From positions 1 to 54,624 of IMG/VR virus record IMGVR_UViG_3300020042_003419: a stretch of DNA of 54,624 nucleotides; one strand, 5' to 3'. Below, piece by piece: positions 619 through 53,751 of the stretch. Source of the DNA: a virus. Taxonomy: Duplodnaviria > Caudoviricetes. The notes beneath the pieces were generated by a model that did not search any database, was not told where the DNA came from, and saw nothing but the letters and a program-made list of their open reading frames with translations. Position 1 is the stretch's first letter; every line of letters begins with the position of its first letter. The position numbers and the translations under genes are program-made.

Positions 619-3600
619 ATGGCAGACTATTCCGATCTGATTCCTGCAACATCAGGCTATGATGATTTAATTCCTGCTAAGCCTGTTGCTGCCGCAATGA
701 CCGCAATGCCAGTCAACACACCAACGTCCAGAGCACCCCAAAAACCACCCGCTGCTGCCTCTGCTGAGCGACAGGCTGCTGAAGATGCACAGCCTAAATA
801 TAGCTATGAAGATCTGTACAAGAACGATGACTTGTACAACATCATCAAAGACTATTCTAAGGTGGCAATGAAGAAAGAGCCAGAACCAAACCAATCACGG
901 CAAGAGTTTGTTAATGACTTCATGTCAAAGATGCGCGGCATTGAGTTTAATGCCATCTTAGATACAGTTCCTGAGTTGAATAAGATGCGTAATGCTAAGC
1001 CAGAAGATGCTGTAAAGATGGCACTGGCTCAAAAGGTTTACGAAAGAACAGCACCTGCTTATTCAGCAGAAGGTCAACCCGGCATACGTCCATATTTTGA
1101 TGCCATTAAAGCCATTGCTACAGACCCCTCAAACTACATTGGTTTTGGTCTTGGTGCTGTAGGTAAGAAACTTGTGGTTGGTGCTGCTAAGAAAGAAGCA
1201 TTGGCATTGGCTGCGGGTACTGCTACTGAAACTATAGCAAAATCTAAGCTGGCTCAACTGGCAACTAAAGCTGCGTTACCAACGGCTGGCAAAGGCATTG
1301 CTGCTGGCACCATTGCTGAAAGCAGTGTTGCTGTTGGTCAGAATGTAATGTCTCAAAAGCTTGGACAACAAACAGCACGGGCGCTGGGTGAAGAAGTTCC
1401 TGAACTGGACAACACGCAATTGGCAGTGGCTGCTTTGTTTGGTGCTGTTGGTGGCTTTGCAGAAGCTCGTGCAGTTATGAAAGCTAAGCCGGGTAAGACA
1501 GGTACTGAACAATTACAAGAATTAATTCAAGAAAAAAACATTGTTCCTAAAGATCCTCTTGCTCCAGCAACAAAGGTTGAGCGTACATTGCTTGATCCTG
1601 TCACTGAGAACATGGATACTATTGTTGATGAATTCAATAAAACTCAAGGCCAAAAGATATTGGATGAGATCTCTCCAATCACACCACTAGCAGAGGCAGG
1701 TATTCAACGTGATCTAAGCGCTCGCGCCATTAGGGTTGCAATGCATATCATTGATCAAGACCCTGCTTTCAGATTGAAACCAAATCAGAAAACTAGCTCT
1801 GCCATTAACGAAGTATTTGCAAACTTAGACACTGGTGGAATCAGTGATGCTTTGCTTGAACAAGCCATTCGTAAAGAAGGACTAACACCACAAGAGTTTG
1901 CACAAGCTAACAAGATGACGGTGACACAAGCTGCTCAGGTTATGCAGCAATACTCTGCTGCTTCTCGTTTGTTGGGCAAGCTAACACAGATTGACCCAGA
2001 AGCCAAGAAGCTTGTTGATAGTTTGTTTGCTAAGCCTGATGATATTCCTAATGCAATGGGTTGGGTTGGCAAAGCCATCTCTTCCGTTGAGCGTGAATCT
2101 AAAGCATGGATGGTTAGTGGTGTTGCTACCACTGTTCGTAACGTTATTGGTACCAGCATTGGTCTTACTTACAACTCCGCTGCTTCATTGGTTGAAGGAA
2201 GTTTGTACACAATTGGCAAAACAATAGGTAGCGCTTCTACAGGAATGCGTGTTGAAACGTTCAAGCGAGGCATGGGCGACACCATCAAAGACACATTCAA
2301 TGTGTATGGGTTGCTATACAGGCAAGGATTGGCTGAAGCAGCCACTGACACCATGCTTAAATATAATCCAGCAATTAACAATGCTTTATTTAGCGCAACA
2401 CAAGAAGGTTCCACTAAAGAAATATCTAAAGTTGGACAGTTGTTCAACACATTGAATGTGGTGCAAGACAGCTTCTTCCGTAAAGCAATCTTCACAGCTT
2501 CAGTAGACAAACACATGCGCCGTGCTGGTCTTGATATGTATCAGACCATTGGTGAAGGTAAGGTTATCCCTGCTGATATTTTAAAGAAATCTACTGATGA
2601 AGCACTGAAGGCTACGTTCTCGTATATGCCTAAGCAAACCAGAGAATCTGGCTTTGAAGCTGGTGCAGAAAGCGCAGCTAACTTAATTGTCAAAGGAATG
2701 GAATATCCCGGCCTAAGTTTGGTTGCTCCGTTTGCTCGTTTCATGTCTAATGCCATTGCTTTCCAATACCGCTATAGCGTGTTTGGCGCAACCTCTGGTG
2801 CATCTGACATACTGCAAGGTGGGTTGTTGAAGAGTGCTGGTAAAGAAGGCGGTGACTACCTTGTTCGTCAAGGCACTGAGAACTTGTCTAAAGGTATTGT
2901 TGGCACTGCTGTATTGGCATATGCCTATGACTATCGGCTAAACAATCAAGACAGTGAATGGTTTAACTACAAGCAAGACGATGGCACCACTACCGATCTA
3001 CGTGCATTGTTTCCAGCAGGGCCAGTGTTGGCTGTTGCTGACTTCATGGCTAAGCGTAAACTTGGTTTGGAACCAAAGACTGCTCAACTAACTGAAGCCA
3101 TCATTGGTATGAAGATGCCAGCCGGTACGCAGAACGTGTTGCTTGATCAAGTGTTTGCTGCATTCTCTTCTGAGAAAGATGCTGACAAAATTGATGTGAT
3201 GATTGGTAAAGTTCTTGGTGACTTCACTACTCGTTTTACTCAACCATTTCTTGTTAAGAATGCTTACGACTTCTTAGATCTGTTCCGTGAAGAAGGTAGC
3301 ATTCAGCGTGATCCCAATGTAATTGTTAGTGATGACAAAATCACTGAAGCAGCAATGAACCGTATTCAGAAGCGCATCCCAATTGCTAAAGAAGACTTAC
3401 CCGCATATCAACCATACACCCGCGAAGGCCCTGTATATCAAGAAGGTGAGTTCTTTGCCAATCTTATTGGTGTTAGACAGGTGCCAGAGAAGAGTGTACA
3501 AGAACGTGAGATTGTTCGCTTAGGTATTGAGCCATACAAACTATATGGTGGCGCAACTGGCGACAAAGAATATGACCGTAAGTTTGTTGAACTAGCAAAC

Positions 3601-5835
3601 CCTATGGTTACTAAGTTCATAGATAGGGCTATGGCTAGTGAACGTTATAAAGCATTGTCTCTTCCTGAGCAAAAGATTGCACTGGCTAATACTGTTAAGG
3701 GTGCCACTGAAGTTGCTCGGGCAAATACAGAAGCAGAATTTAGTATTAATGATATTAATAAAATCTATAAGATGAAGTTTGATAAGCTTCCTGCAGATAA
3801 GCGAGGCATTATCAATGATCGTTATGCTAAAGATAACGAAGGAAAATCATTAGAAGAAGCTAAAGACTACAAGGCTGTTTACAAGTATGAAGCAATGCTT
3901 GGTAATCTACAGTTTAACGTTGGTGGTTTTGTTGCTAAAGGATTGACGAAGCTGGCTAAGGGTGTTCCAGACATTGCTAAAACTGCGGCAACTAAAGCAA
4001 CAAAGACATTGGACAATACAGAAATTGATCAGTTAGTAAACAAAGCCATTGACGATGCTATTGGTGCAAAGGCCAGCCCTGTTGTTGATCAAATGGCAAA
4101 GGTGTTGACAAAGAAGCCAGTAATGCCTAAGAAGCCCGTAGAGCCTCCATCACTGGAAGCAGCTACCCCTGTACCAGCACCAGCAACAAAGGCCCCTGAA
4201 GACCCGTTAGAACAGGTTGGTGAGGTATTGACACCGCCACCACCTAAGAAGGATGGGCTTGACGCGCTGTTTTCGTTGTATAACGAACTCTATCCAAGCA
4301 AGCCTGTTACCACAACGGCTCGACCCTTCACTGAAGAAGCCTATACAAAAGGCAAGGCTGACTTGATTGACACCTTTGGTGCTAAAGAAGTTGAGAAAAT
4401 GATCAAGAATGATCCAAAAGATTATGCAAACATGTTGCACATCTATGCTGGTGATACGCTTGGATTGAAGAAGGGTAAGGGATTGCCACCGCTGCCTTAT
4501 GAAGTTGCTGACACTGCCATTGTTAAATACGATGACATGGGCAACCCTATTCCTATTGGACAGATTGAAAAGAAAACGGCAGGTAATGTTGTCCCGGAAC
4601 AAGAAGTGCAATACAGCGGTGAATACTTAACTGGTGATTTTGATAATAAAACTTTGAAGAATAAAGCAACTCGGGAAAGACAAAACATATTATCTGAAAT
4701 TAAAGATGCTCGTAAAAGGTCTTTCAACGATCTTAAAAAGAATAAGATGATGGAGGCTATTGATGGTGATGTTGTTGCTGTGGCTCAAGGAGATTTCAGG
4801 TTTAAACTAAAACGTGAAGCTGACCCAAACAATGATAAAGATGTTGCTGCGTTTGCAGACATAGCTAATTCTTTGCAGAAGAAGTATGACACTCTTAAAG
4901 AGAGGTACAAAGACAAACCACCTATTAAACTTTTCCACGGCAACTATGATGTTGAAGATATTAAAACTACAGGCTTCACCGATCCTCAAAAGTTTTATAC
5001 TACTGGTCATTCAGAGTTGAGAATTGGCGGCCCGTCCTTTACTAAAGACACTGGACTTGGCGTACAAGGTAAACGTTTTGGAGGTGAAAATCCAGAAAAT
5101 TATCTCTACACAGAAATGCCGTATGCTGATTATATGTTTAAACGAATAAACATGCCATTGACTGAATATAACTCGAGAGACATGAACCTTATTGCTAGAA
5201 CAATAACAGGTTCTCTTGACACTGTTCGCCCTTTGTCACTACCTCGTGCTGGTTTCAGTGAAACAGAAGATGTGATTGTTGAAGCAGAAAAGCTTGTAAC
5301 ACAGGGCAAAGGTAAGATGCGTCTTAAACCCGCCACTGAAGAGTTGACTAAACCAATTCGTGAAGGTGGTAAGGGTAGGTTGCAGACAACTCTTGATCGC
5401 AGAGAAAAGTTTACAAATGATAGAGAGTTGTTGCGCGACTACATGACTCTAGTCAATGACGATACATCATCATTAAGAGATCGTAGAAAAACAGCATATC
5501 TAACTTATGATTTAATTAAAACAATATCCAATGATTTGTTAGGTGCTGCTGAATCTGTGTCAGTTGGCAAAGGTCTTGGTCACACGTATCAAACTGATAT
5601 GACTCGTTTCGCTAATCAAATATCATCAACCAATAAAATTGAATCAGTTATCAAAGTTCTTGATGATATGGGTGCTGTTCAAAAGGCGTCAACGTTAAGA
5701 AAAGTCAAGGATGAACTTGTTGGTTTGGCTAACATATCTGATAATAGTCCTGACAAGAATACAATCAAAGCTCTTAATCAAACCAGAGAAGCTGCACGTA
5801 AACTAGCTAAGGGTGGCTTTGTAAGCAGACGATAG
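619..5835 (+). CDS. Large internal virion (ejection) protein, 1738 aa, with C-terminal ADP-ribosyltransferase-like region
   Basis: Last and largest gene of the structural arm; Ala/Gly-rich hydrophobic stretches in the N-terminal part; Pro-rich linker; LFHG...PSFTKD...ETE motifs at aa ~1438-1550. Confidence 0.7.
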   Translation: MADYSDLIPATSGYDDLIPAKPVAAAMTAMPVNTPTSRAPQKPPAAASAERQAAEDAQPKYSYEDLYKNDDLYNIIKDYSKVAMKKEPEPNQSRQEFVNDFMSKMRGIEFNAILDTVPELNKMRNAKPEDAVKMALAQKVYERTAPAYSAEGQPGIRPYFDAIKAIATDPSNYIGFGLGAVGKKLVVGAAKKEALALAAGTATETIAKSKLAQLATKAALPTAGKGIAAGTIAESSVAVGQNVMSQKLGQQTARALGEEVPELDNTQLAVAALFGAVGGFAEARAVMKAKPGKTGTEQLQELIQEKNIVPKDPLAPATKVERTLLDPVTENMDTIVDEFNKTQGQKILDEISPITPLAEAGIQRDLSARAIRVAMHIIDQDPAFRLKPNQKTSSAINEVFANLDTGGISDALLEQAIRKEGLTPQEFAQANKMTVTQAAQVMQQYSAASRLLGKLTQIDPEAKKLVDSLFAKPDDIPNAMGWVGKAISSVERESKAWMVSGVATTVRNVIGTSIGLTYNSAASLVEGSLYTIGKTIGSASTGMRVETFKRGMGDTIKDTFNVYGLLYRQGLAEAATDTMLKYNPAINNALFSATQEGSTKEISKVGQLFNTLNVVQDSFFRKAIFTASVDKHMRRAGLDMYQTIGEGKVIPADILKKSTDEALKATFSYMPKQTRESGFEAGAESAANLIVKGMEYPGLSLVAPFARFMSNAIAFQYRYSVFGATSGASDILQGGLLKSAGKEGGDYLVRQGTENLSKGIVGTAVLAYAYDYRLNNQDSEWFNYKQDDGTTTDLRALFPAGPVLAVADFMAKRKLGLEPKTAQLTEAIIGMKMPAGTQNVLLDQVFAAFSSEKDADKIDVMIGKVLGDFTTRFTQPFLVKNAYDFLDLFREEGSIQRDPNVIVSDDKITEAAMNRIQKRIPIAKEDLPAYQPYTREGPVYQEGEFFANLIGVRQVPEKSVQEREIVRLGIEPYKLYGGATGDKEYDRKFVELANPMVTKFIDRAMASERYKALSLPEQKIALANTVKGATEVARANTEAEFSINDINKIYKMKFDKLPADKRGIINDRYAKDNEGKSLEEAKDYKAVYKYEAMLGNLQFNVGGFVAKGLTKLAKGVPDIAKTAATKATKTLDNTEIDQLVNKAIDDAIGAKASPVVDQMAKVLTKKPVMPKKPVEPPSLEAATPVPAPATKAPEDPLEQVGEVLTPPPPKKDGLDALFSLYNELYPSKPVTTTARPFTEEAYTKGKADLIDTFGAKEVEKMIKNDPKDYANMLHIYAGDTLGLKKGKGLPPLPYEVADTAIVKYDDMGNPIPIGQIEKKTAGNVVPEQEVQYSGEYLTGDFDNKTLKNKATRERQNILSEIKDARKRSFNDLKKNKMMEAIDGDVVAVAQGDFRFKLKREADPNNDKDVAAFADIANSLQKKYDTLKERYKDKPPIKLFHGNYDVEDIKTTGFTDPQKFYTTGHSELRIGGPSFTKDTGLGVQGKRFGGENPENYLYTEMPYADYMFKRINMPLTEYNSRDMNLIARTITGSLDTVRPLSLPRAGFSETEDVIVEAEKLVTQGKGKMRLKPATEELTKPIREGGKGRLQTTLDRREKFTNDRELLRDYMTLVNDDTSSLRDRRKTAYLTYDLIKTISNDLLGAAESVSVGKGLGHTYQTDMTRFANQISSTNKIESVIKVLDDMGAVQKASTLRKVKDELVGLANISDNSPDKNTIKALNQTREAARKLAKGGFVSRR

Positions 5836-5860
5836 AGAAAGCCCCTTGCGGGGCTTCTTT
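5836..5860. terminator. Intrinsic terminator between the converging arms, probably bidirectional
   Basis: AGAAAGCCCC-TTGC-GGGGCTTCTTT hairpin between convergent stop codons. Confidence 0.85.
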
Positions 5861-5862
5861 GT

Positions 5863-6213
5863 TTAATCTTCTAGTTCTTCTAACGCTAGATCTAGGAATA
5901 ATTTCTGTTTCTTTTTAGCAGCAATATTTTCCAGTTCTTGTTTCTTTGATTGTTCAATCCATACATCTTTATTCTTTAATATAAACTGCTCCATTTCAAA
6001 GAGTTCCTTTATTAGCAAATTAAGCTTTGCAAGTTTAATACCTAACTCTTTAGCGGTATGTGCTGTAAAGTCTAGGTTTACTTGACGATTGCAATCACTA
6101 ATCTTCACATTACTATATATTGAATAGTGACCAACATCTACATCACATTCAATAGCAGCGAGTCCTTGTTTCTTATTCAGAAAATTACGGCTGTTATATT
6201 TAACTTCTTTCAT
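5863..6213 (-). CDS. Hypothetical protein
   Basis: 116-aa ORF, GGAGA SD, tightly packed in the operon. Confidence 0.75.
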   Translation of the reverse strand: MKEVKYNSRNFLNKKQGLAAIECDVDVGHYSIYSNVKISDCNRQVNLDFTAHTAKELGIKLAKLNLLIKELFEMEQFILKNKDVWIEQSKKQELENIAAKKKQKLFLDLALEELED

Positions 6214-6215
6214 AA

Positions 6216-6413
6216 TTATCTCCGTTGTTGTAGACGATTAATATTGTCAAAGTAGGCAGCATCAAATCCACGCTGCCATTCTTGTCCTTGAACTGTTTCA
6301 CCATCATATTGATTAGTTAGCCAGCCTTTGCTAAATGCAAAATAACCTTGGTTAAATTGAATCTTCAAAGGCGCACGGCGCTCAATGAGTTTTACATTGG
6401 TATCTAGTCCCAT
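6216..6413 (-). CDS. Rmf/CrpP-like small protein (65 aa)
   Basis: Start at ATG 6413 after AAGGAG; pattern F-x-x-GY-x-A...G...N-x-Y...EW-x-x-GF resembles ribosome modulation factor-like proteins. Confidence 0.55.
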   Translation of the reverse strand: MGLDTNVKLIERRAPLKIQFNQGYFAFSKGWLTNQYDGETVQGQEWQRGFDAAYFDNINRLQQRR

Positions 6414-6414
6414 G

Positions 6415-6699
6415 TCACACTCCTTTACCGAACATTTCTTCACGAAGCAGATAGCCCTCAAGAGGCCATAGCTTTTCAATAGCATCACCATAGCTGTATT
6501 GTTCACCAACAGCTTTGTTGAACATTGATGGGTCAGCACAGGCACTGGTGCCAAGTACAACATAACCATTCTTCATTGTCATGACACAAAGGGTGGTGGT
6601 TGTTTCTGGCAGCACAGCATATGAAACATGTTTAATCTTGTCTTGTATATCTGACAAGGTAACTCTGGTTCGCCGTATTTCTAGGTTTGGATGGTTCAT
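6415..6699 (-). CDS. Phage gp49/gp66 family protein, Acb4-like nucleotide-signal sponge
   Basis: Motifs NGYVVLGTSACADP..FN..VGE and KLWPLEGYLL. Confidence 0.7.
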   Translation of the reverse strand: MNHPNLEIRRTRVTLSDIQDKIKHVSYAVLPETTTTLCVMTMKNGYVVLGTSACADPSMFNKAVGEQYSYGDAIEKLWPLEGYLLREEMFGKGV

Positions 6700-7166
6700 A
6701 ATTTAAGTTGAGAAATTTTTAAGTTGTAACAGTCAGACTTTACCACATAGTTGTTAGCAGGGTCAATAGTTCCTTTCTTCATAAATACAGCATCTTCTAA
6801 ATAAGCCTTCTTATCGTACATGCCCAAGTACCATCCAACTGTAAAGTCATTCTTTACACGAACAAAGCAATAGGCATCACAGGCTTGTTTAGTGTTTAAA
6901 TCGGCAACACTACATTCGTAATATGGCAACGGAACAGCACTGGTTTGCTTTGTCTTCACATCAATTTTAATTCCGTTATCTAAAACAAGATCGTAATCAA
7001 ATGTGTTGATCAGTTCACCACCAATCACTTGTTGTGCGATAGCTTCACCAATGAAACCAGCAATGTTGCCAGCCCCACTGGTGATGCTATTGTACAGCTT
7101 GCCCATTGCTGCCGCTTTGTCTCTGGCTTCAACGAGCATGTCTGCTGTAATCGCTACTTCAATCAT
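6696..7166 (-). CDS. Putative PD-(D/E)xK nuclease-fold protein
   Basis: GE...YDL...IDVKTK motif. Confidence 0.5.
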   Translation of the reverse strand: MIEVAITADMLVEARDKAAAMGKLYNSITSGAGNIAGFIGEAIAQQVIGGELINTFDYDLVLDNGIKIDVKTKQTSAVPLPYYECSVADLNTKQACDAYCFVRVKNDFTVGWYLGMYDKKAYLEDAVFMKKGTIDPANNYVVKSDCYNLKISQLKL

Positions 7167-27800: not shown

Positions 27801-27869
27801 TTTGTTGTATAACTAATACATTGTTTGTTTGAAGAATTAAGTTCTTCTATTTGTTTAATGAAAGAAAAT

Positions 27870-28427
27870 ATGGCTACATCTGATATTGCTACTAAAGCTG
27901 CTAAGTTCCGTGAAATGGCAAAGGACAAAGCATTGCCACAAGACGTTCGTAACGCCTATCTTGACAAAGCTAACAAGCTTGAAGAGAAGACAATGAAGCC
28001 TACAATGGCTATGGGTGGTATGGTTAAGATGGCTGTGGGTGGTATGGTTAAGCCTTTGAATCCTTTGCAAGCAAAGAGACAAGAACAAAAGGCAATGATG
28101 ATTAAAGACCGTTTAGCCACTAAAGCAGCCAATCAAGCCGCTAAAGCACCTTTTCCTAATAACATGGGCGGCATGGGCGGTATGGGCGGTAGTGGTGGTA
28201 AGGGTGGTGGCATGGCTACTGGTGGCATGGTTGGTGGTAGTGCTAATGGCAGTGATAACCGTTTCGCTATGGGTGGCACGGTTGGCGGCAGTGCTAATGG
28301 CAGCGACAATAACTTTGCCAAAGGTGGCATGGCTAAGAAGCCAGCAATGATGAACTATGGCGGCATGGCAATGAAAAAGCCAATGATGGCTAAGGGCGGT
28401 GCTGTTAAAAAAGCTAAGTCTAAATAA
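27870..28427 (+). CDS. Basic Met/Gly-rich protein with seven xxxGG tag repeats
   Basis: Probable start MATSD; MAMGGMV, MAVGGMV, MATGGMV, FAMGGTV, FAKGGM, MNYGGM, MAKGGAV. Confidence 0.75.
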   Translation: MATSDIATKAAKFREMAKDKALPQDVRNAYLDKANKLEEKTMKPTMAMGGMVKMAVGGMVKPLNPLQAKRQEQKAMMIKDRLATKAANQAAKAPFPNNMGGMGGMGGSGGKGGGMATGGMVGGSANGSDNRFAMGGTVGGSANGSDNNFAKGGMAKKPAMMNYGGMAMKKPMMAKGGAVKKAKSK

Positions 28428-31589: not shown

Positions 31590-32056
31590 TGACGTTAGGT
31601 GCTTGGGTGCTTCCGCAACCAGAAGATACAACTACCTATGTAAGCATACCCAAGATAGGTAGGACAGTTCCGTTTGGGTATAAAGAAGGTGTTGAAGAAG
31701 GATGGCTTGATCCAATACCAATTGAACTTGAAGCATTAGAAAAAGCTAAGAAGCATTTAAAGCAGTATTCATCAAGAGATGTTTCTGCATGGTTGAGTAA
31801 ATTAACTGGTAGAACAATTTCTCACGTAGGTTTGTTAAAACGAATAAAAGATGAACAGTCCCGCAAAAGAAAATCTTCAACTTATCGCAAGCTTGCCAAG
31901 CGATACGAAGAAGCGCTCAGGAAGGCCGAAGAATACGAGAAGCGCATCGGTGTCAAAGAAGACGACCCCTACCTCAGTAGTGCCAAGTATCAAGCCCTCA
32001 GAGCCGGTTTTACCGACAACGCCAGTAGAAACACAGAACATAGTATTCAAGCCTAA
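31589..32056 (+). CDS. Putative DNA-binding protein (recombinase-associated-like PFGY + HTH)
   Basis: RTVPFGY, S.R.V..WL...TGR.ISH.GL. Confidence 0.55.
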   Translation: MTLGAWVLPQPEDTTTYVSIPKIGRTVPFGYKEGVEEGWLDPIPIELEALEKAKKHLKQYSSRDVSAWLSKLTGRTISHVGLLKRIKDEQSRKRKSSTYRKLAKRYEEALRKAEEYEKRIGVKEDDPYLSSAKYQALRAGFTDNASRNTEHSIQA

Positions 32057-33428
32057 TAATGGCCCTCAATCGCACTTCTTAGCTGCTGGTCAACGTGAGG
32101 TTTTGTATGGTGGTGCTGCTGGTGGTGGTAAAAGTTATGCAATGTTAGCAGATCCATTGAGATACATGGGTCATCCACAGTTTTCTGGATTGCTTTTGCG
32201 ACATACAACTGAGGAGTTACGTGAACTTATATGGAAGTCTCAGGAGATTTATCCTAAGATTTATCAGGGCATTAAGTGGAGTGAAAGAAAAATGCAGTGG
32301 CAAGCGCCATCGGGTGCTAGATTGTGGATGTCATACCTAGATAGGGATGAAGACGTACTGCGTTATCAAGGGTTGGCGTTCAGTTGGATTGGTTTTGATG
32401 AGCTTACGCAGTGGAGTACACCATTTGCGTGGAATTATATGCGCTCTCGACTACGTACACCTGCTGCAGACCTACCAATTTTCATGCGAGCAACGACAAA
32501 TCCGGGTGGGCCGGGTCATTCTTGGGTGAAGAAGATGTTTATTGACCCCGCCCCGGCTGGAAAGTCTTTCGATGCCACCGATATTGAGACAGGGCAAACA
32601 ATGTTGTACCCAAAAGGTCACAGCAAAGAGGGTCAACCGTTATTTAAACGTAAGTTTATACCAGCAATGCTGACAGATAATCCATATTTGTCTGAATCTG
32701 GTGATTATGAAACCATGTTGCTAAGCTTACCGGAGCATCAACGTAAACAATTGTTAGAAGGAAATTGGGATGTTGCAGAAGGAGCCGCTTTTCCAGAGTT
32801 TAATAGAGCGATACACGTTATTGAGCCATTTGACATTCCTCAAAACTGGACAAGATTTAGATCGGGTGATTATGGGTACGGAAGTTATAGTGCAATCGTG
32901 TGGTTTGCTGTATCTCCTAGCGATCAACTAATCATCTATAGAGAATTGTACGTATCTAAGGTACTTGCTGTTGATTTGGCTAAAATGATTAATCAAATTG
33001 AAGCAAATGATGGAACAATGAGATACGGTGTGCTAGATAGTAGTTGTTGGGCCAAGCGTGGTGATAATGGCCCTTCAATTGCTGAACAAATGATATTAGA
33101 AGGATGCCGTTGGCGTCCTGCTGACCGTAGTGCTGGTAGTCGTGTCGCAGGAAAACAGCAACTTCATAGGCGATTACAGGTTGATCCATTTACAGACATG
33201 CCTAAAATGGTTATAACAAGTAATTGTGTTAATATAATAGCTCAGCTTCCTATCATTCCACTGGATAAAAAAAATCCAGAAGATATTGATACTAAGTCTG
33301 AAGATCATTTATATGATGCTATCAGATATGGAATTATGAGTAGACCACGTAGTAGCATTTGGGACTATAACCCTGCTACATCAAAGGCTGCTGGCATGCC
33401 AATGGCTGATAAACTTTTTGGGTATTAA
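31851..33428 (+). CDS. terL: Terminase large subunit
   Basis: Walker A GGAAGGGKS, Walker B IGFDE, ATTNPGG, nuclease DYG and DH.YDA.RY; start uncertain. Confidence 0.95.
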   Translation: MNSPAKENLQLIASLPSDTKKRSGRPKNTRSASVSKKTTPTSVVPSIKPSEPVLPTTPVETQNIVFKPNNGPQSHFLAAGQREVLYGGAAGGGKSYAMLADPLRYMGHPQFSGLLLRHTTEELRELIWKSQEIYPKIYQGIKWSERKMQWQAPSGARLWMSYLDRDEDVLRYQGLAFSWIGFDELTQWSTPFAWNYMRSRLRTPAADLPIFMRATTNPGGPGHSWVKKMFIDPAPAGKSFDATDIETGQTMLYPKGHSKEGQPLFKRKFIPAMLTDNPYLSESGDYETMLLSLPEHQRKQLLEGNWDVAEGAAFPEFNRAIHVIEPFDIPQNWTRFRSGDYGYGSYSAIVWFAVSPSDQLIIYRELYVSKVLAVDLAKMINQIEANDGTMRYGVLDSSCWAKRGDNGPSIAEQMILEGCRWRPADRSAGSRVAGKQQLHRRLQVDPFTDMPKMVITSNCVNIIAQLPIIPLDKKNPEDIDTKSEDHLYDAIRYGIMSRPRSSIWDYNPATSKAAGMPMADKLFGY

Positions 33429-33435
33429 GGAAAAC

Positions 33436-35550
33436 ATGGCAACTAAACAAACACAATATACACCAGACACAACTTTGTCTTTGGGAGATGATAAGAATTC
33501 TGGTAATATAGGATTCACTGGCGGGTCACTACTTTCTTTTATTCAAGAACGATTTACTCGTTCCGAATCAAGTCGTCGCGCTGATGAAACACGTTGGCTA
33601 CGAGCATATAGAAATTATCGTGGTTTGTATGGGCCTGATGTTCAATTTACTGATACTGAAAAATCTCGTGTGTTTATTAAAGTTACAAAGACAAAGACAC
33701 TTGCCGCATATGGGCAAATTGTTGATGTGTTGCTTGCTAATAATAAATTTCCTATCAGCATTGACCCGTCTGTATTGCCAGATGGTATTGTTGAAAGTGT
33801 TCATTTTGATCCTAACAACCCTTCTACAACTGAAAAACAAAAGATAGACATTCCGTTTGGTAAAGACGGTAGTGCTGGAATTACTGCTGGATTTAACCTA
33901 GATACTTTGGAAGAAATGCTAGGTTCGATGAAGGAAGAGTTGAAAGATATTCCCGGTCTAAAAAAGGGTCTTGGTGTAACGCCAACATCTGTTACGTTTA
34001 GTCCTGCTTTAGTAGCTGCTAAGAAGATGGAAAAGAAAATTCATGATCAACTAGACGAAAGCAGCGCCTCTAAACATTTACGCTCTGTAGCTTTTGAAAT
34101 GTCTTTGTTTGGTACAGGGGTAATGAAAGGCCCGTTTGGTACTAACAAAGAATATCCACATTGGGGTGAAGATGGTAAATATAATCCATTAATTAAAACT
34201 GTTCCAGAACTTTCGAGTGTTTCTATTTGGAATTTTTATTGGGATTCTGATGCTAATAATACTGAAGATTGTCAGTATGTTTTTGAACGTCACAAGCTTA
34301 ATCGCTCACAAGTTAGAGCGTTGAAGCGCCGCCCATTCTTTAGGGCAAATGTAATTGATCAAGTTATTGCGGAAGGTGAAAGCTATCAAAAGAAATATTG
34401 GGAAGATGACTTAAAAGACTTTGCACCTAATTTTGGTATTGATCGTTTTGAGGTATTAGAATATTGGGGTTCTGTTGATATTGACTTGCTGATTGAAAAT
34501 GATATTAACATTCCACGAGAACTTGAAGGTGAAGGTGAACTACAGGCAAACATTTGGTATTGCAATGGAAAGATATTGCGGCTTGTATTGAATCCGTTTA
34601 AGCCATCAAAGATTCCTTACTATGCTGTGCCGTATGAGTTGAATCCATATTCGTTGGCTGGTGTTGGTATTGGTGAAAACATGGACGACACCCAAACGCT
34701 AATGAATGGTTTCATGCGTATGGCAGTTGACAATGCTGTTTTGTCTGGTAACTTGGTCTTTGAGATTGATGAAACTAATTTAGTTCCCGGCCAAGACTTT
34801 TCTGTTCATCCGGGCAAAGTGTTTAGAAGGCAAGGTGGCGCTCCCGGACAAAGCTTGTTTGGTACAAAATTCCCTAACGTAGCACAGGAAAACTTGCAAC
34901 TGTTTGACAAGGCTCGTCAACTATCCGATGAGTCTACTGGTCTTCCATCATTTGCTCATGGACAAACAGGCGTGTCTGGTGTTGGTCGCACAGCCTCTGG
35001 TATTTCCATGTTGATGAATGCTGCTTCTGGTGGTATTAAAACTGTTATTAAAAACATTGATGATTATTTGCTTGGCCCAATTGGTAAAGCATATTTCAAC
35101 TTTAATATGCAGTTTGATTATGACCCAGAAATCAAAGGTGATCTGGAAGTTAACGCTCGTGGCACAGAAAGCTTAATGGCTAATGAAGTTCGTAGTCAGC
35201 GATTGATGCAGTTTTTACAGATTGCTAGTCAGCCTTCTCTTGCTCCTTTTGCCAAGTTTCCATACATCATTCGTGAAATTGCAAGGAGCATGGATTTAGA
35301 TCCTGAGAAAGTTACAAACAATATGGATGAAGCAATGAAGCAAGCTGCTCTGCTCCAAAAACAACAAACTCCTCCTGCTCCTGAAGGTGGCGGCACACCT
35401 GCTCCGGGACAACCCCCACAAGGCGTTGCAGGGCCTCCGGGTGTTGCCGATCAAACAGGTGGTGGTGGTGGCAACATTGGTGTTGGCGCTCCTCCTGAGC
35501 CGGGAATGCAAGGCTTTTCAGCGGCTCCCCCTGCTGCTCCAATGGCATGA
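33436..35550 (+). CDS. Portal protein
   Basis: Follows TerL; ~700 aa; FGTGVMK, YELNPY..G.G, PGK.F, RTASGISML; Pro/Gly tail. Confidence 0.9.
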   Translation: MATKQTQYTPDTTLSLGDDKNSGNIGFTGGSLLSFIQERFTRSESSRRADETRWLRAYRNYRGLYGPDVQFTDTEKSRVFIKVTKTKTLAAYGQIVDVLLANNKFPISIDPSVLPDGIVESVHFDPNNPSTTEKQKIDIPFGKDGSAGITAGFNLDTLEEMLGSMKEELKDIPGLKKGLGVTPTSVTFSPALVAAKKMEKKIHDQLDESSASKHLRSVAFEMSLFGTGVMKGPFGTNKEYPHWGEDGKYNPLIKTVPELSSVSIWNFYWDSDANNTEDCQYVFERHKLNRSQVRALKRRPFFRANVIDQVIAEGESYQKKYWEDDLKDFAPNFGIDRFEVLEYWGSVDIDLLIENDINIPRELEGEGELQANIWYCNGKILRLVLNPFKPSKIPYYAVPYELNPYSLAGVGIGENMDDTQTLMNGFMRMAVDNAVLSGNLVFEIDETNLVPGQDFSVHPGKVFRRQGGAPGQSLFGTKFPNVAQENLQLFDKARQLSDESTGLPSFAHGQTGVSGVGRTASGISMLMNAASGGIKTVIKNIDDYLLGPIGKAYFNFNMQFDYDPEIKGDLEVNARGTESLMANEVRSQRLMQFLQIASQPSLAPFAKFPYIIREIARSMDLDPEKVTNNMDEAMKQAALLQKQQTPPAPEGGGTPAPGQPPQGVAGPPGVADQTGGGGGNIGVGAPPEPGMQGFSAAPPAAPMA

Positions 35551-35768
35551 GCAAAGAATATCTAAACAGGCTTAAACCGCTTGTCAACGCTCCTTTGCAG
35601 TGGCAAGCTTTTGAAGAGATGCTTGAGCATTACATTATTCAACATCAACGCAAGTTAGAACAATCTTCTGAACCCATTGATATGTACAAAGCACAAGGTG
35701 CTATTTCTGCTCTACGGCAACTTAAATATTTAAAGGATGAAATCAATGTTTATAACAAAGCGAAATAA
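35547..35768 (+). CDS. Small helical protein following the portal
   Basis: YKAQGAI..LR.L..LKDE pattern. Confidence 0.7.
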   Translation: MSKEYLNRLKPLVNAPLQWQAFEEMLEHYIIQHQRKLEQSSEPIDMYKAQGAISALRQLKYLKDEINVYNKAK

Positions 35769-37560
35769 ACTTCTTGCTGATGGAGGCATGTTGCAAGAGG
35801 GTGGAACTGTCGATGAAATTAGTGGAAATGACGTTCCAATTGGTTCCACAAAAGAAGAAGTTAGGGACGATATTGATACCAAACTTAGTGTTGGTGAATA
35901 TGTATTTCCTGCCGATGTTACTCGCTATTACGGAATTGCAAAGCTTGAAGAGATGCGTAAAAAAGCTCAAGACAGTTTGAAACAAATGGAAAGCGGTGGA
36001 CGGATGGGCAACGCTGAAGAAGTGTCTGAGGAAGCAATTGCTGCTTATGACGAGGGTGAGTTTGCTAATGAAATTGATGATTCTATTGCAGAGTATGATA
36101 AAGAGCAAGAATATAATACAGGTGGTGTTGTAACATACGATCCTGCTGCTAGTGAAGAAAAGTATAAACGCGCTCCGCTTAAAGGTTTTGAAATGATTCC
36201 TATGTCAGATGACAAAGGTAATGTTATATATATACCTTTCGTTAACGGAAAACCTCAATTGGCTGTTCCGTTTGGTTATTCAATTAAAGCCGCAACTACA
36301 ACCCCTCCCGTTAATACTCCTGATGGCACAACTCCTACATCACCCGCTGTTCCTCAAGGCCCGACTGGTGGCGCTGGCGGCGCTCCAAGTAAAGGTGGTT
36401 ATACTCCAACATCTTCGTTAAGTTCTTCGGCTCCTATATCAGTTACAGGAAATATTCAAGCCTCACTTGAAGGATATTCTACTGCTTTATTTGGATTGCT
36501 CCCCTTTGCTATTCCAGCAAAAGTTATAGCAAATATGATGGTTGATAAGGCCGCTGTTGCTGAAGCTCAAGCAACCACAGATGCTATTGCTGCTGCCGTT
36601 GCTTCTGGAGTATCTCTTGGTGGTGGCTATGGAACACCTGTTTCTCAAGGTGGATATGGTGTTACCTCTCCGACAGGTGCAAGTATTGCAGCAAACCCAA
36701 TGGGGGTTGATCCAGCTACAGCACAGGGTCAGCAAGCTAATCTATCGTCTATTCTTTCACAAAGCATTGCAGATTCAATTGCTAATAACACCGATCCTAA
36801 CACTTCTCTTATTTCTGTGATGGCTCAACAAGGATTATCTTCAAGCGTTGGAGATACATCTGCCGCAGCTATGGGACTTAGCAGTAATGTAGGCGTTGCA
36901 GCGCCATCTTCAGGCGTATCAACTGCCGCCGTTGGAAATACCTCTCCCGCAGCTATGGGGCTTTCTAGTATGGGCGTTGCTGCTCCTAGTTCGGGTGGTG
37001 GTGACGGTGGTGGTGACGGTGGTGGTGTTGGTGGTGGTGACGGTGGTGGTGTTGGTGGTAGCGGTGTCGGTGCCGCTGGCGCTCCCGGTGGCGGCGGTGG
37101 TGCCTCTGGAGGCCCCGGCGGTGCTGGTGGTAGCGGTGTTGGCACTGCTTGCGTAGATCCAAAAACACTGGTACTTCTGGCTAACGGTTCTGAAATTTCT
37201 GCAGGGTTGTTAAAAATCGGGGATGTTGTCCACACACTCCATGAAGGCACTTTTGAATACGGTGACTTTGAAATTACCCGTGCAAAAATAGTACAGCAAC
37301 CAAAGAGAGTTATTAAATTTACAGACGCAAGTGAAATTACTACATCTGATTCTCACAAGTTCTTGCTTACTAACCGTGAGTGGAAAACTGTAGAAGACTT
37401 AAAACAAGGTGATGCTATTGAAACTGCACCAAACATAAATGCTGATGGATTTAAAGTTGTTTCCTCTATGGAACAAATAGGTAACGGCGATGTAGTCATA
37501 CTAACTATTGATCAGGCTCATACCTATATTTCAGAGGGACTTGTTTCCCATAACAAGTAA
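35737..37560 (+). CDS. Head-module protein with GG tags, Gly-rich linker and C-terminal Hint (BIL-like) domain
   Basis: N-terminal GG.V...DDI...LS.GEYV.PADV.R..G domain; Hint from Cys472 (CVDPKTLV...L.IGD.V...TSDSHKF...W..V..L..GD...HTYI..G.VSHNK*). Confidence 0.85.
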   Translation: MKSMFITKRNKLLADGGMLQEGGTVDEISGNDVPIGSTKEEVRDDIDTKLSVGEYVFPADVTRYYGIAKLEEMRKKAQDSLKQMESGGRMGNAEEVSEEAIAAYDEGEFANEIDDSIAEYDKEQEYNTGGVVTYDPAASEEKYKRAPLKGFEMIPMSDDKGNVIYIPFVNGKPQLAVPFGYSIKAATTTPPVNTPDGTTPTSPAVPQGPTGGAGGAPSKGGYTPTSSLSSSAPISVTGNIQASLEGYSTALFGLLPFAIPAKVIANMMVDKAAVAEAQATTDAIAAAVASGVSLGGGYGTPVSQGGYGVTSPTGASIAANPMGVDPATAQGQQANLSSILSQSIADSIANNTDPNTSLISVMAQQGLSSSVGDTSAAAMGLSSNVGVAAPSSGVSTAAVGNTSPAAMGLSSMGVAAPSSGGGDGGGDGGGVGGGDGGGVGGSGVGAAGAPGGGGGASGGPGGAGGSGVGTACVDPKTLVLLANGSEISAGLLKIGDVVHTLHEGTFEYGDFEITRAKIVQQPKRVIKFTDASEITTSDSHKFLLTNREWKTVEDLKQGDAIETAPNINADGFKVVSSMEQIGNGDVVILTIDQAHTYISEGLVSHNK

Positions 37561-37585
37561 TACTGTATAATATCAATATCTAAAC

Positions 37586-37671
37586 CAGTGATGGGCTGGA
37601 AGATACTTTATAACAACCCATCATTAATGGCTACCTATCTCCCCAGTTTTACTGGCTACAGTTAGCCCCAA
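37586..37671 (+). promoter_or_regulatory. Structured 5' leader of the scaffold gene
   Basis: TGATGGG/CCCATCA, CCAGT/ACTGG and GGCTA/TAGCC pairings just upstream of the SD. Confidence 0.45.
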
Positions 37672-37685
37672 CTTAAAAGGTAAAT

Positions 37686-38552
37686 ATGACAGAAGCAGTT
37701 ATTGAGCAAGCAAAAGTTATGTCTTTATATGGAAAACGTAATGCTAACACCGAACGAATTGAAAAAGAAGAAGCTGAACTAAAAACATTAATTGAAGGAG
37801 CCATCGGTGGGCGACAACAAAAAGCTGAAGAACCTAAAGCAGAAATTCAACCAGAATCTGCTGAAGAGAAAAGCTTTAAGAAACGTTATGGAGATTTGCG
37901 CCGTCACTCACAAGAACAACAACTGACTTTTCAAAAGCAGATTGATGAACTTAAAAGTCAGCTTCAGCTAAGCACTGAGCAGCAAATCAAAATGCCAAAG
38001 AGTGAGGCAGAGCTTGCCGCATGGGTACAGGCATACCCTGATGTTGCCAAGATTGTTGAAACCATTGCGTTGAAAAAAGCTAAGGAACAATCATCTTATT
38101 TGGAAGAGCGCTTTAAAGCCTTAGATGAACAAGAGAAACTAACGGCTCGTGAAAAAGCTGAAGCAGCATTGATAAAGGCTCATCCTGACTTTGAACAAAT
38201 TAGAGAAACTGATGAGTTTCACGAATGGGTTGATGATCAGCCTAAATATATTCAAGACGCTTTATATACTAACGATACAGACTACAAAGCTGCTTCTCGT
38301 GCCATTGATCTTTACAAGGCTGATAAGGGAATTACTAGAGCACCATATCGTGATACTAGCAAAGATGCTGCTGCAAGCGTTGGCATCCGTAAAAGTAAAG
38401 CCGCCCCTGATTCTGACAATGTTGAAGGCTCATTTAAAGAGAGTGAAGTTAATCGTATGAGCATTCAGCAGTATGAGGATAATCAGGAAGCAATTACCAA
38501 GGCTATTCGTAGTGGTAAATTTATTTACGATATTAGCGGGGCAAGCCGATAA
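37686..38552 (+). CDS. Capsid scaffolding protein
   Basis: Acidic coiled coil, FKKRYGDLRRH, HPDF..I...F..W; precedes the capsid gene. Confidence 0.8.
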   Translation: MTEAVIEQAKVMSLYGKRNANTERIEKEEAELKTLIEGAIGGRQQKAEEPKAEIQPESAEEKSFKKRYGDLRRHSQEQQLTFQKQIDELKSQLQLSTEQQIKMPKSEAELAAWVQAYPDVAKIVETIALKKAKEQSSYLEERFKALDEQEKLTAREKAEAALIKAHPDFEQIRETDEFHEWVDDQPKYIQDALYTNDTDYKAASRAIDLYKADKGITRAPYRDTSKDAAASVGIRKSKAAPDSDNVEGSFKESEVNRMSIQQYEDNQEAITKAIRSGKFIYDISGASR

Positions 38553-38901: not shown

Positions 38902-39972
38902 ATGGCTTTTCCTTCCGCAACCGGTTACGGGCAACTAAGCAATGGTAACTTTTCGCCCGTCATTTATTCTAAACAAGTCCAAGTGGCTTTCCGCAAGTCG
39001 TCTACTGTTGAGGCTATCACCAACAATGACTACTTTGGTGAGATTGCTAACATGGGCGACTCAGTTAAAATCATCAAAGAGCCTGAAGTGTCGGTTCAGA
39101 ACTATGCTCGTGGTACTCAAATCACTGCACAAGAACTGGACGATCAAGACTTCACGTTAGTTGTTGACCAAGCTAACTACTTTGCATTCAAAATTGACGA
39201 CATTGAAGCCGCTCACTCTCATGTAAATTTCATGCAAATGGCTTCTGACCGCGCTGCTTATCGCTTGCGTGATCAGTTTGACCAAGACGTATTGGGTTAC
39301 TTGACAGGCTTCCAGCAAGCAGCTAAGCATGCCAATGCCAGCGTTGCTCGTAGTACCGCTCCCGGCACCAAGTCTGTTTCTACGGCTGATTCTGACGAAC
39401 TGTTGGCAACAATGAAGCTGAAAAAAAGCAGCTTCGGTAACATCACTACGGCCTCTGCTGGTGATCATTCGATTCCCTTGGCTGCTCGTCTGCCCGGCGC
39501 TACTGCTCTGCCTACCTCTACGGCTTCACCTTTGATGGTGCTGGCACGTATGTCTCGTCTGTTGGATCAACAACTTGTTGACACCACTGGTCGTTGGGTT
39601 GTTGTTGACCCCGTGTTTGTTGAGTTGCTGAAAGATGAAGACAGCCGTCTTTTGAATAGTGACTTCGGTGGTGTTGGTCTGCAAAACGGATTGATCTTGA
39701 ACAACTTGCACGGCTTCAAAGTGTATGTGTCGAGCAACTTGCCTTCTGTTGGTACTGGCCCCGGTACTACTGGCACTGCCAACCAAAATAGCAACTATGG
39801 TGTTATTGTTGCTGGTAACGATCAGGCCGTTGCTTCTGCTCAGCAAATTACCAAAACCGAAACCTATCGTGACCCTGACAGCTTTGCTGACATCGTTCGT
39901 GGTATGCACCTGTATGGTCGTAAGATTTTGCGTCCTGAAGCTCTGGTAACTGCAAAGTACAACGCCGCCTAA
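38902..39972 (+). CDS. Major capsid protein (HMO-2011-type/N4-gp56-like)
   Basis: NFSPVIYSK, ITN.DY.GEI...GD.VKI, FKIDDIE, F.DIVRG.H.YG.K..RPE; strong AGGAG SD and biased codons. Confidence 0.92.
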   Translation: MAFPSATGYGQLSNGNFSPVIYSKQVQVAFRKSSTVEAITNNDYFGEIANMGDSVKIIKEPEVSVQNYARGTQITAQELDDQDFTLVVDQANYFAFKIDDIEAAHSHVNFMQMASDRAAYRLRDQFDQDVLGYLTGFQQAAKHANASVARSTAPGTKSVSTADSDELLATMKLKKSSFGNITTASAGDHSIPLAARLPGATALPTSTASPLMVLARMSRLLDQQLVDTTGRWVVVDPVFVELLKDEDSRLLNSDFGGVGLQNGLILNNLHGFKVYVSSNLPSVGTGPGTTGTANQNSNYGVIVAGNDQAVASAQQITKTETYRDPDSFADIVRGMHLYGRKILRPEALVTAKYNAA

Positions 39973-53238: not shown

Positions 53239-53751
53239 ATGGCAACAAAGCAACTACCCGTTAGTCAAGCATTAATGTCAGTACCTGCTGGCATTTCGTG
53301 GACAGCCCCTGATAAAAGTAGGAATTGGCAAAAACCTCCTAAGCTAGTAAAAGTAAACGATGTTGTTAAATATTATATGGCAGCAATTTCTTCTGAAGAA
53401 ATGGCTAGTGATGTGCTGGATGTATTAGAAACAAACATACCTTTATCAGTTATTGCTGAGAGCATGATGCTTTCCAATGTTAGTGAAGGTCTTCATACTA
53501 TTGATACTGGTATTTTAGTAATGCCTGTAATGATGGAGATGTTAAAGGCTATTGCAATGCTTAATGACATTGATACAAAAGACTATGCATCGGATTATGA
53601 TAAAGACGAAAAAGTATCTAATCGAGTAATCAAACAAGCTATCGCACAAGTGTTCAAAACAATTGAAACTTCATCTGAAGAAACATCCCCCACTAAAGAA
53701 GCTGAACCAGTTGGTGGGTTAATGTCACGTAAGACTAAAGGAACTATTTAA
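53239..53751 (+). CDS. Conserved virion-associated protein
   Basis: P.G.S.T......WQ.PP, EGLHTID; ends GGLMSRK. Confidence 0.7.
   Translation: MATKQLPVSQALMSVPAGISWTAPDKSRNWQKPPKLVKVNDVVKYYMAAISSEEMASDVLDVLETNIPLSVIAESMMLSNVSEGLHTIDTGILVMPVMMEMLKAIAMLNDIDTKDYASDYDKDEKVSNRVIKQAIAQVFKTIETSSEETSPTKEAEPVGGLMSRKTKGTI

Follow-up and report, generated by a model that had tools for sequence, protein, structure and literature searches.

The window analysed here is the whole of the IMG/VR virus record IMGVR_UViG_3300020042_003419 (Duplodnaviria; Caudoviricetes), 54,624 bases long and with an estimated completeness of 97%. A gene in its head module encodes a 607-amino-acid protein whose C-terminal 136 residues, judged by the catalytic positions, include an intact mini-Hint domain (Table 1). 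The block F motif of this domain is ...DQAHTY, and the protein ends in ...DQAHTYISEGLVSHN, a single Lys and TAA. A preliminary description of the locus had read here a Gly-rich linker followed by GTA/CVDPKT (the slash marks the Hint boundary), SDSH, block F, HN, one Lys and the stop, with neither an endonuclease nor a C-extein nucleophile; translation of the open reading frame (ORF) bears out every element, with a linker of 52 residues. Endonuclease is indeed absent, the Hint being only 135 amino acids long and without an insert, and the +1 residue is Lys607, directly before the stop codon.

Table 1. Features of the Hint-bearing gene and of the surrounding head module (positions in the window)
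Feature	Position	Strand	Remarks
Hint-bearing gene, 607 amino acids	35737..37560	+	conserved N-module, variable Ala/Ser/Gly-rich middle, Gly linker, Hint, Lys, stop
Conserved N-terminal module (N-module), residues 1-190	35737..36306	+	motif GGTVD..SGNDVP......VRDD....LS.GE[FY]V.PADV; invariant columns G22...G180
Gly-rich linker, 52 residues (420-471), GGGDGGGDGGGVGGGD...GGSGVGTA	36994..37149	+	-1 residue Ala471; GC 0.70
Mini-Hint, Cys472-Asn606, 135 residues	37150..37554	+	type A BIL-like
Cys472 (tgc), Hint residue 1	37150..37152	+	predicted thioester nucleophile
Block B equivalent S-D-S-H, residues 537-540 (Ser537, His540)	37345..37356	+	Ser in place of the usual Thr
His605-Asn606 (cat aac, 37549-37554; block G), then Lys607 (aag)	37549..37557	+	Lys607 is the sole post-domain residue
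TAA stop (37558-37560) and 125-nt intergenic spacer	37558..37685	+
Small terminase-like gene and large terminase	31851-33428		head module
Portal protein	33418..35550	+	PF23899 (82.1 bits), phrog_332, phrog_1216
73-amino-acid ORF	between portal and Hint-bearing gene		head module
288-amino-acid protein, scaffold position	37686..38552	+	phrog_13678; function inferred from position alone
Major capsid protein	38902..39972	+	PF25209, phrog_267

The search for Hint families proposed in the preliminary description gave a positive result: the 136-residue piece matches the Pfam family Intein_splicing (PF14890) with an E-value of 2.5e-7 and scores just above the cut-off for TIGR01443 (intein_Cterm; 16.2 against 15.6), and a sequence match to the solved Hint protein 8w20 has an E-value of 2e-5. 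The score for TIGR01445 is below the cut-off (19.8 against 24.5), PF01079 gives no match to the query at E≤1, Hint_2 (PF13403) gives no match either, and no PHROG family matches the whole protein, the Hint or the N-terminal 200 residues. The AlphaFold2 model, built from an alignment of 36 sequences, is an all-beta structure with a predicted local distance difference test score (pLDDT) of 97.0 and a predicted template modelling score (pTM) of 0.88. A Foldseek search of the PDB with this model returned 66 matches at E≤1e-3, headed without exception by inteins, bacterial intein-like (BIL) domains or Hedgehog proteins with template modelling (TM) scores of 0.74-0.85; the first match is the Ssp DnaB mini-intein (E 5e-10, TM 0.84-0.85). 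The absence of a Hint fold, one of the outcomes named as adverse in the preliminary description, is excluded by the quality of the model and by TM scores of 0.80-0.85 to known Hints. Ser66, His69, His124 and Asn135 (Hint numbering) are invariant across the 36-sequence alignment, and the nucleophile and block B His that characterize the HINT superfamily are both present (Cys472, Ser537, His540). A fold search of BFVD recovered chiefly canonical inteins that reside in the terminases or polymerases of phages, along with proteins automatically named 'Hint domain'.

A search with the Hint alone over 1.84 billion representatives clustered at 50% identity detected 651 matches at E≤1e-3, including 269 at E≤1e-10 and 20 at E≤1e-30. 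Conservation was counted over 146 complete copies that occur in 137 of the best 150 of these 651 proteins. Cys at position 1 is present in all 146 copies and the terminal His-Asn in 144, and Cys, Ser or Thr at the +1 position is found in 5. Lys occupies the +1 position in 95 of the 146 copies and either +1 or +2 in 136; the residue at -1 is Gly in 60 copies, Ser in 28, Thr in 18 and Ala in 11. More than 30 residues trail the Hint in 99 of the 146. The flanking Lys is kept across different types of flanks, namely Gly-rich, Pro-rich, those with a KxAKGGLV motif and tails of a few residues; because it is retained irrespective of the remaining flank, this Lys travels with the Hint module. The consensus of the clade is C[VP]DP.T.I ... 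G[LI].SHN/K. Pfam, NCBIfam and PHROG hold no model dedicated to this Lys-flanked viral Hint clade. When 88 relatives were scanned with PT-HINT (PF07591), the family that we take to represent type A BILs, 39 matched at E≤1e-3 and 14 reached the gathering score (27.7 bits), and the family profile matches the gp41-1 intein (2.7e-9), 2lwy (1.1e-5) and 6y75 (1.2e-5). By its Pfam profile matches, the clade falls between PT-HINT and Intein_splicing.

The genomic setting of the clade was examined in the best 80 loci from a scan of IMG/VR with one degenerate peptide pattern (208 matches, 132 confirmed copies). The shortest Hint-bearing ORFs at these loci encode a few hundred residues and the longest about 2,900, and the Hint is embedded in linkers rich in Gly or Pro. 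In complete ORFs of L020, L028, L031 and the L071 group, the Hint is near-terminal, with 9-15 residues past HN. At the loci closest to the query, those with 'CVDP', the Hint-bearing ORF adjoins genes for a virion structural protein (phrog_3287), a DNA ejection protein (phrog_4287) and internal virion proteins (phrog_342 and phrog_511), and other proteins of the clade bear Peptidase_S74 tail-fibre chaperone, fn3, subtilase or tape-measure-type modules. Judging from these sequences, the Lys-flanked Hint clade is large, mainly viral and located in Gly/Pro-rich linkers of phage virion proteins, and its hosts include internal or ejection-module proteins, tail-fibre-like proteins and giant Pro-rich proteins. 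A scan of prokaryotes (185,579 species, one genome each) produced 3 pattern matches and 0 relatives; because a single narrow pattern was used, this suggests only weakly that cellular genomes lack the clade. When viral contigs were scanned with the 607-residue protein in full, 4 pattern matches resulted, with 0 confirmed.

Tandem Hints, with two to four copies per ORF, are found in L046, L059, L064 and the L071 group. Pro-rich spacers are a feature of the tandem-copy ORFs of L071, L073, L075, L076, L078, L081 (ORF at about 3331-6846), L046, L059, L060 and L064. In the L071 group, one copy has SRT in place of SHN and another shows no N-terminal Cys in the alignment to the hidden Markov model (HMM), and some tandem copies may therefore be degenerate. 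Among single proteins, P0278 (676 amino acids, with a precomputed match to subtilase, PF00082) has a Hint of the clade close to the C-terminal end, with a Cys-rich tail of 19 residues after it. In P0127, P0123, P0272-P0277 and other relatives, the Hint is followed by the motif GPG.G.SD.IPA..(L/A).GE[FY]V.PA, which matches tape-measure PHROGs and resembles the N-terminal motif of the 607-residue protein (window positions 35737-36000). In 6 further proteins with a Hint, the HMM of the N-module also has weak matches 3' of that domain.

With its terminal HN, the lack of a +1 nucleophile and the location in a hypervariable region, the query Hint fits the description of a type A BIL-like domain. It is similar to type A BILs in the possession of Cys1, the block B His and the terminal HN, in the absence of an endonuclease and in its location in a variable region, and superimposes on the Clostridium thermocellum BIL (2lwy) with a TM score of 0.80. 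It differs from them in that the clade is found in viral contigs rather than in bacterial secreted or toxin proteins, in the conserved Lys after HN, in Ser for Thr in block B and in the presence, in the query, of nothing but Lys past the domain. The query keeps block G (His605-Asn606), which type B BILs lack; a C-type BIL is known as well, from predatory bacteria. Class 1 mini-inteins (Ssp DnaB, Npu DnaB, gp41-1) have the same fold (TM 0.78-0.85) and share Cys1, the block F His and the terminal HN, whereas the query has Lys607 at +1 and is inserted in a low-complexity linker at a variable C-terminus, not at a conserved site of an essential enzyme; as there is no C-extein, canonical splicing is impossible here. 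The Hog domain of Hedgehog proteins resembles the query in that the Hint forms the C-terminal end of a functional N-part (TM 0.81-0.83 to 1at0 and 6tyy), but the query is devoid of the sterol-recognition region and keeps the terminal His-Asn. In the literature, type A BILs are described as having a terminal His-Asn, no +1 nucleophile and variable, non-conserved hosts (PMC4031507, PMC7765530), and as yielding predominantly cleavage products, with splicing proposed to proceed by thioester aminolysis (PMC4031507).

Given that every residue required to form the thioester and to cyclise the Asn is in place and that the domain is terminal, self-cleavage between Ala471 and Cys472 is a reasonable expectation. 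The reading that we favour, and consider moderately probable, is that the Hint removes itself through a Cys472 thioester. After folding, an N-to-S acyl shift would occur at the Ala471-Cys472 bond, and the thioester would be resolved by water or, following cyclisation of Asn606, by the amine of Lys607, as in the type A BIL route. The products would be a mature protein of 471 (or 472) residues and a free 15-kDa Hint, and the Gly-rich C-terminus of the mature protein would resemble the ends of Hint-less relatives. The close homologues without a Hint end in ...GGTGSGVGGD or ...GTGSGI, like the sequence that cleavage would expose.

Alternatively, the Cys472 thioester could be captured by the Lys after HN, or by a Lys of a virion or host protein, yielding a peptide or isopeptide link. 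The near-universal Lys at +1 or +2, the flexible Gly-rich N-flank and the aminolysis proposed for type A BILs are all compatible with such ligation. So is the similarity to BIL2 from the BUBL polyubiquitin-like locus of Tetrahymena (6y75/6tmm), a non-canonical Hint that is among the top structural matches (TM 0.83), resolves its thioester with a Lys amine and is reported to make a Lys-epsilon isopeptide without ATP (PMC8616854); the phage clade, for its part, keeps a flanking Lys and can be repeated in tandem within a polyprotein. The parallel is incomplete, however: BIL2 comes from a ciliate, not a phage, and the phage flanks are not ubiquitin-like, a Pfam scan of the N-part having detected no ubiquitin-like or other domain. 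Moreover, we identified neither an acceptor protein nor an acceptor motif, capture by Lys607 would here add just one residue, and cleavage products dominate among type A BILs, so that we regard ligation at this locus as quite unlikely. The preliminary description had envisaged joining of the N-part to a lipid, a cell-wall amine or a protein; none of the results obtained here points to any of these as the recipient. We also regard as unlikely the broader proposition that the HN-Lys clade is a distinct ligating class in which the conserved Lys, or the Lys of a partner, attacks the Cys1 thioester without an enzyme or ATP. On this proposition, internal virion proteins would be spliced by way of an amide or isopeptide bond or be tethered covalently within the capsid, and a terminal module such as the one described here would serve as a self-removing C-terminal activation cap.

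The protein that carries the Hint is probably a virion-internal protein of an HMO-2011-type podophage. Its N-terminal approximately 95 residues share 55% identity with the protein in the same position of Puniceispirillum phage HMO-2011, and proteins of Roseobacter CRP phages match the N-terminal part as well; it is on this resemblance that we assign the phage to the HMO-2011 type. The N-terminal 200 residues have at least 2,116 homologues at E≤1e-3, and the location of the N-module gene between the portal and scaffold-like genes is common to L001, L002 and L093. The C-termini, a survey of which the preliminary description had suggested, were sorted for the best 120 of the 2,116 homologues: 65 end in an AKGG[FL]V-plus-basic tail, 26 in low-complexity sequence rich in Gly, Ser, Ala and Asp, 12 in a CFI-box-like domain (NF041770 for P0001) and 17 in other sequences. 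This survey was positive for a Hint in one of the 120 and negative in the rest; the positive homologue, P0012, has a Hint of a different lineage (...GVGPT/CFVKG...LVHN/KGGDSSGG). Among 80 N-module loci in IMG/VR, with 66 complete ORFs, two ORFs match the Hint HMM, those of L093 and L139. L093 is a 55-kb contig with the same synteny and a P0012-type Hint that ends in MLVHN/KD and the stop. Searches that started from the Hint identified two more proteins with the same N-module, P0276 and P0140, in which a Hint of the query clade (75% and 46% identity, respectively) is followed by a basic tail. Together with P0012 and L093, they indicate that Hints of at least two unrelated lineages arrived at the same C-terminal linker. 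Of the sporadic and degenerate occurrence that the preliminary description had named as adverse, the former is largely what we observe (1/120 and 2/66) and the latter is not: the query Hint is not degenerate, and terminal or near-terminal Hints recur at the same site (L093, P0012, P0276, P0140).

The C-terminal domain of L139 has a Cys after a Gly linker and the motif ISNDHPV, and is without a terminal HN. It was considered as a third Hint lineage and left unconfirmed and uncounted (HMM E 1.9e-4, Vint E 0.033); a phmmer search of the PDB with this domain found nothing relevant, and its single-sequence AlphaFold2 model, with pLDDT 40.9, is unusable. Other modules occur in proteins of the N-module family as well. 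In L001 (3828-6812, MW202701.1), P0031, P0038, P0041, P0083 and others, a CFI-box-CTERM-like domain follows the poly-Gly linker in place of the Hint; this domain also starts with Cys (...GGGAG/CFLTTA...), and NF041770 scores 52.1 bits for P0001. The HMO-2011 homologue phage1322_49 (L002, 5010-7298, 762 amino acids) has a different Cys-containing C-terminal domain (...RVICTELYKQGKLSRDLY...) that matches no family. The N-module homologues P0112 and P0116 have a precomputed match to PF18760, presumably the ADP-ribosyltransferase of polyvalent proteins, which, if this identity is right, suggests that the family can carry effector-like cargo.

The identity of the Hint does not follow that of the protein in which it resides. 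P0276 is 40% identical to the query in the N-module and 75% identical in the Hint; P0272 and P0274 have no homologous N-module at all and are 77% identical in the Hint; and P0004, P0008 and P0012, with 75-81% identity in the N-module, have no Hint of the query clade. This decoupling indicates that the Hint module moved among virion genes of different phages, and the pattern would be explained most simply by recombination in repetitive linker DNA and not by vertical descent. In the nearest Hint relatives (P0276, P0125, P0272-P0275), the Hint is followed by KFA[KR]GG..., the start of a basic tail or of a tape-measure-type module. By comparison with these sequences, the query copy has dropped the basic tail KFAKGGLVSK... 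that trails the Hint in its nearest relatives; no remnant of a KFAKGGLV tail or C-flank is found 3' of the Hint in the three forward frames. Such a history is also what one would expect of a passenger, either a mobile intein-like hitch-hiker or the recent leftover of a Hint-plus-tail cassette with its tail deleted; it would have no role in this phage, might have kept or lost its cleavage activity, and would leave the protein to function like its Hint-less relatives. The module is sporadic, being found in only 1/120 and 2/66 homologues, and was acquired horizontally, its phylogeny being decoupled from that of the host protein; this possibility therefore deserves to be taken seriously, and the KFA[KR]GG... 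retained by the nearest copies and absent here, as well as the extended sequence after the Hint in 99/146 copies, add to it. We nevertheless consider it doubtful. The catalytic residues are intact, with 75-77% Hint identity in unrelated hosts; a purely selfish element, if it had no homing endonuclease and resided in non-essential linkers, would have nothing to keep it from being deleted; the same C-terminal site in the N-module family has been taken by no fewer than two unrelated Hint lineages; and the tandem arrays, with up to four copies per ORF, point to use as processing sites.

The joint between the linker and the Hint was compared with Logan contigs. In the run that covers the region best, one contig stops at 37139 and the next one begins at 37170, and the repeat at 36994-37089 is skipped. 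Taken by itself, this break does not count against the join. An artefact, whether a mis-join among the repeated Gly codons or a canonical intein cut short when an assembly or frameshift error removed its C-extein, could draw on the break and on P0003, a 439-residue protein with an identical N-part that diverges within the repeated region. However, the second, independent contig spans 37170-37900 with 0 differences and carries the Hint, HNK, TAA and the next gene, and the same architecture is found in P0276, P0140 and L093. Furthermore, given that Lys at +1 is the norm in the family, no nucleophile has been 'lost', and there is no remnant of a tail in any frame; an artefact is thus highly improbable. 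A freshwater run from a different study also contains 37157-37386, with 8 differences. The preliminary description had pointed to a change of base composition at the junction. The change is real, the guanine-plus-cytosine (GC) content being 0.70 in the linker and 0.38 in the Hint, as compared with 0.43 for the window as a whole and 0.44 for the N-part, but trivial: it is produced by the GGN (Gly) codons of the linker, so that the jump is uninformative on origin and was rejected as a sign of foreign descent.

Several points have to be set against the self-removal of the Hint, the reading that we favour. The match to Intein_splicing misses the gathering score (31.0 bits against 35.8), PT-HINT gives no match to the 607-residue protein at E≤1, and where the solved relative 8w20 has its block F Asp, a residue to which a functional role is ascribed, the query has an Ile in the alignment. 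The joint at 37140-37169 has no bridging Logan contig. The Hint is present in about 1-3% of the sampled members of the N-module family and, being so rare among the homologues, must be dispensable for the core function of the protein. The N-part matches no Pfam or PHROG family, and its virion-internal role is deduced from the position of the gene and a weak sharing of tape-measure-type motifs. Finally, for the Lys-flanked Hint clade as such, that cleavage takes place, when it does so and what becomes of the thioester are matters of inference.

Inteins, Hedgehog proteins and BILs share the chemistry of Hint domains, a classic mechanism of self-processing that is also a major tool of protein engineering. 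To our knowledge, nearly all known phage Hints are canonical inteins in replication and packaging enzymes. The viral clade described here consists of hundreds of representatives at 50% identity that are small, endonuclease-free, without a splicing nucleophile and located in linkers of virion proteins. If active, these domains would mediate protease-independent maturation or tethering of virion proteins and would supply compact new tags for self-cleavage or ligation; if they are inactive passengers, they would represent Hint modules that spread by linker recombination without homing endonucleases. The clade is apparently undescribed: in a body of literature that included few subscription journals and no supplements, a search for BIL or Hint domains in the virion proteins of phages brought to light no account of such a clade. 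What it did recover were reviews of inteins and BILs, a phiCbK paper that reports a canonical terminase intein, and the paper on polyvalent proteins, which deals with autoprocessing by metallopeptidases and in which 'intein' is absent and 'hint' is present only as an ordinary word.

The preliminary description had placed the Hint-bearing gene between those for the portal and the scaffold. The portal stands (PF23899, phrog_332); the label of scaffold for the 288-residue protein denotes position only, given that phrog_13678 carries no assigned function. The 'GG tags' mentioned in the same description are probably the AKGG[FL]V-plus-basic C-terminal tails of several virion proteins, which are not ubiquitin-like. 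Motifs of this type close three other proteins of the phage, encoded at 619-5835 (+), 27825-28427 (+) and 53239-53751 (+), which end in ...LAKGGFVSRR, ...MMAKGGAVKKAKSK and ...VGGLMSRKTKGTI, respectively, each followed by the stop. The AKGG[FL]V-type tail may be a common tag for docking or for incorporation into the virion. Such a tail is missing from the Hint-bearing protein itself, and in relatives the Hint directly precedes one.

Two other features of the head module are worth recording. The C-terminus of the portal protein (35300-35550) is a Gly/Pro/Ala-rich tail, ...GGGGGNIGVGAPPEPGMQGFSAAPPAAPMA, with a GC content of 0.55-0.58, and forms a second low-complexity, high-GC patch in this module. 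In the spacer just 5' of the scaffold-position gene, the summed contig depth over 37627-37703 is far above that of the surroundings, with contributions from several unrelated runs; small indels and substitutions occur within this segment, and its flanks 5' of 37627 vary among the runs. It looks like a conserved regulatory element or ribosome-binding site, or else a recombination boundary, common to related phages.

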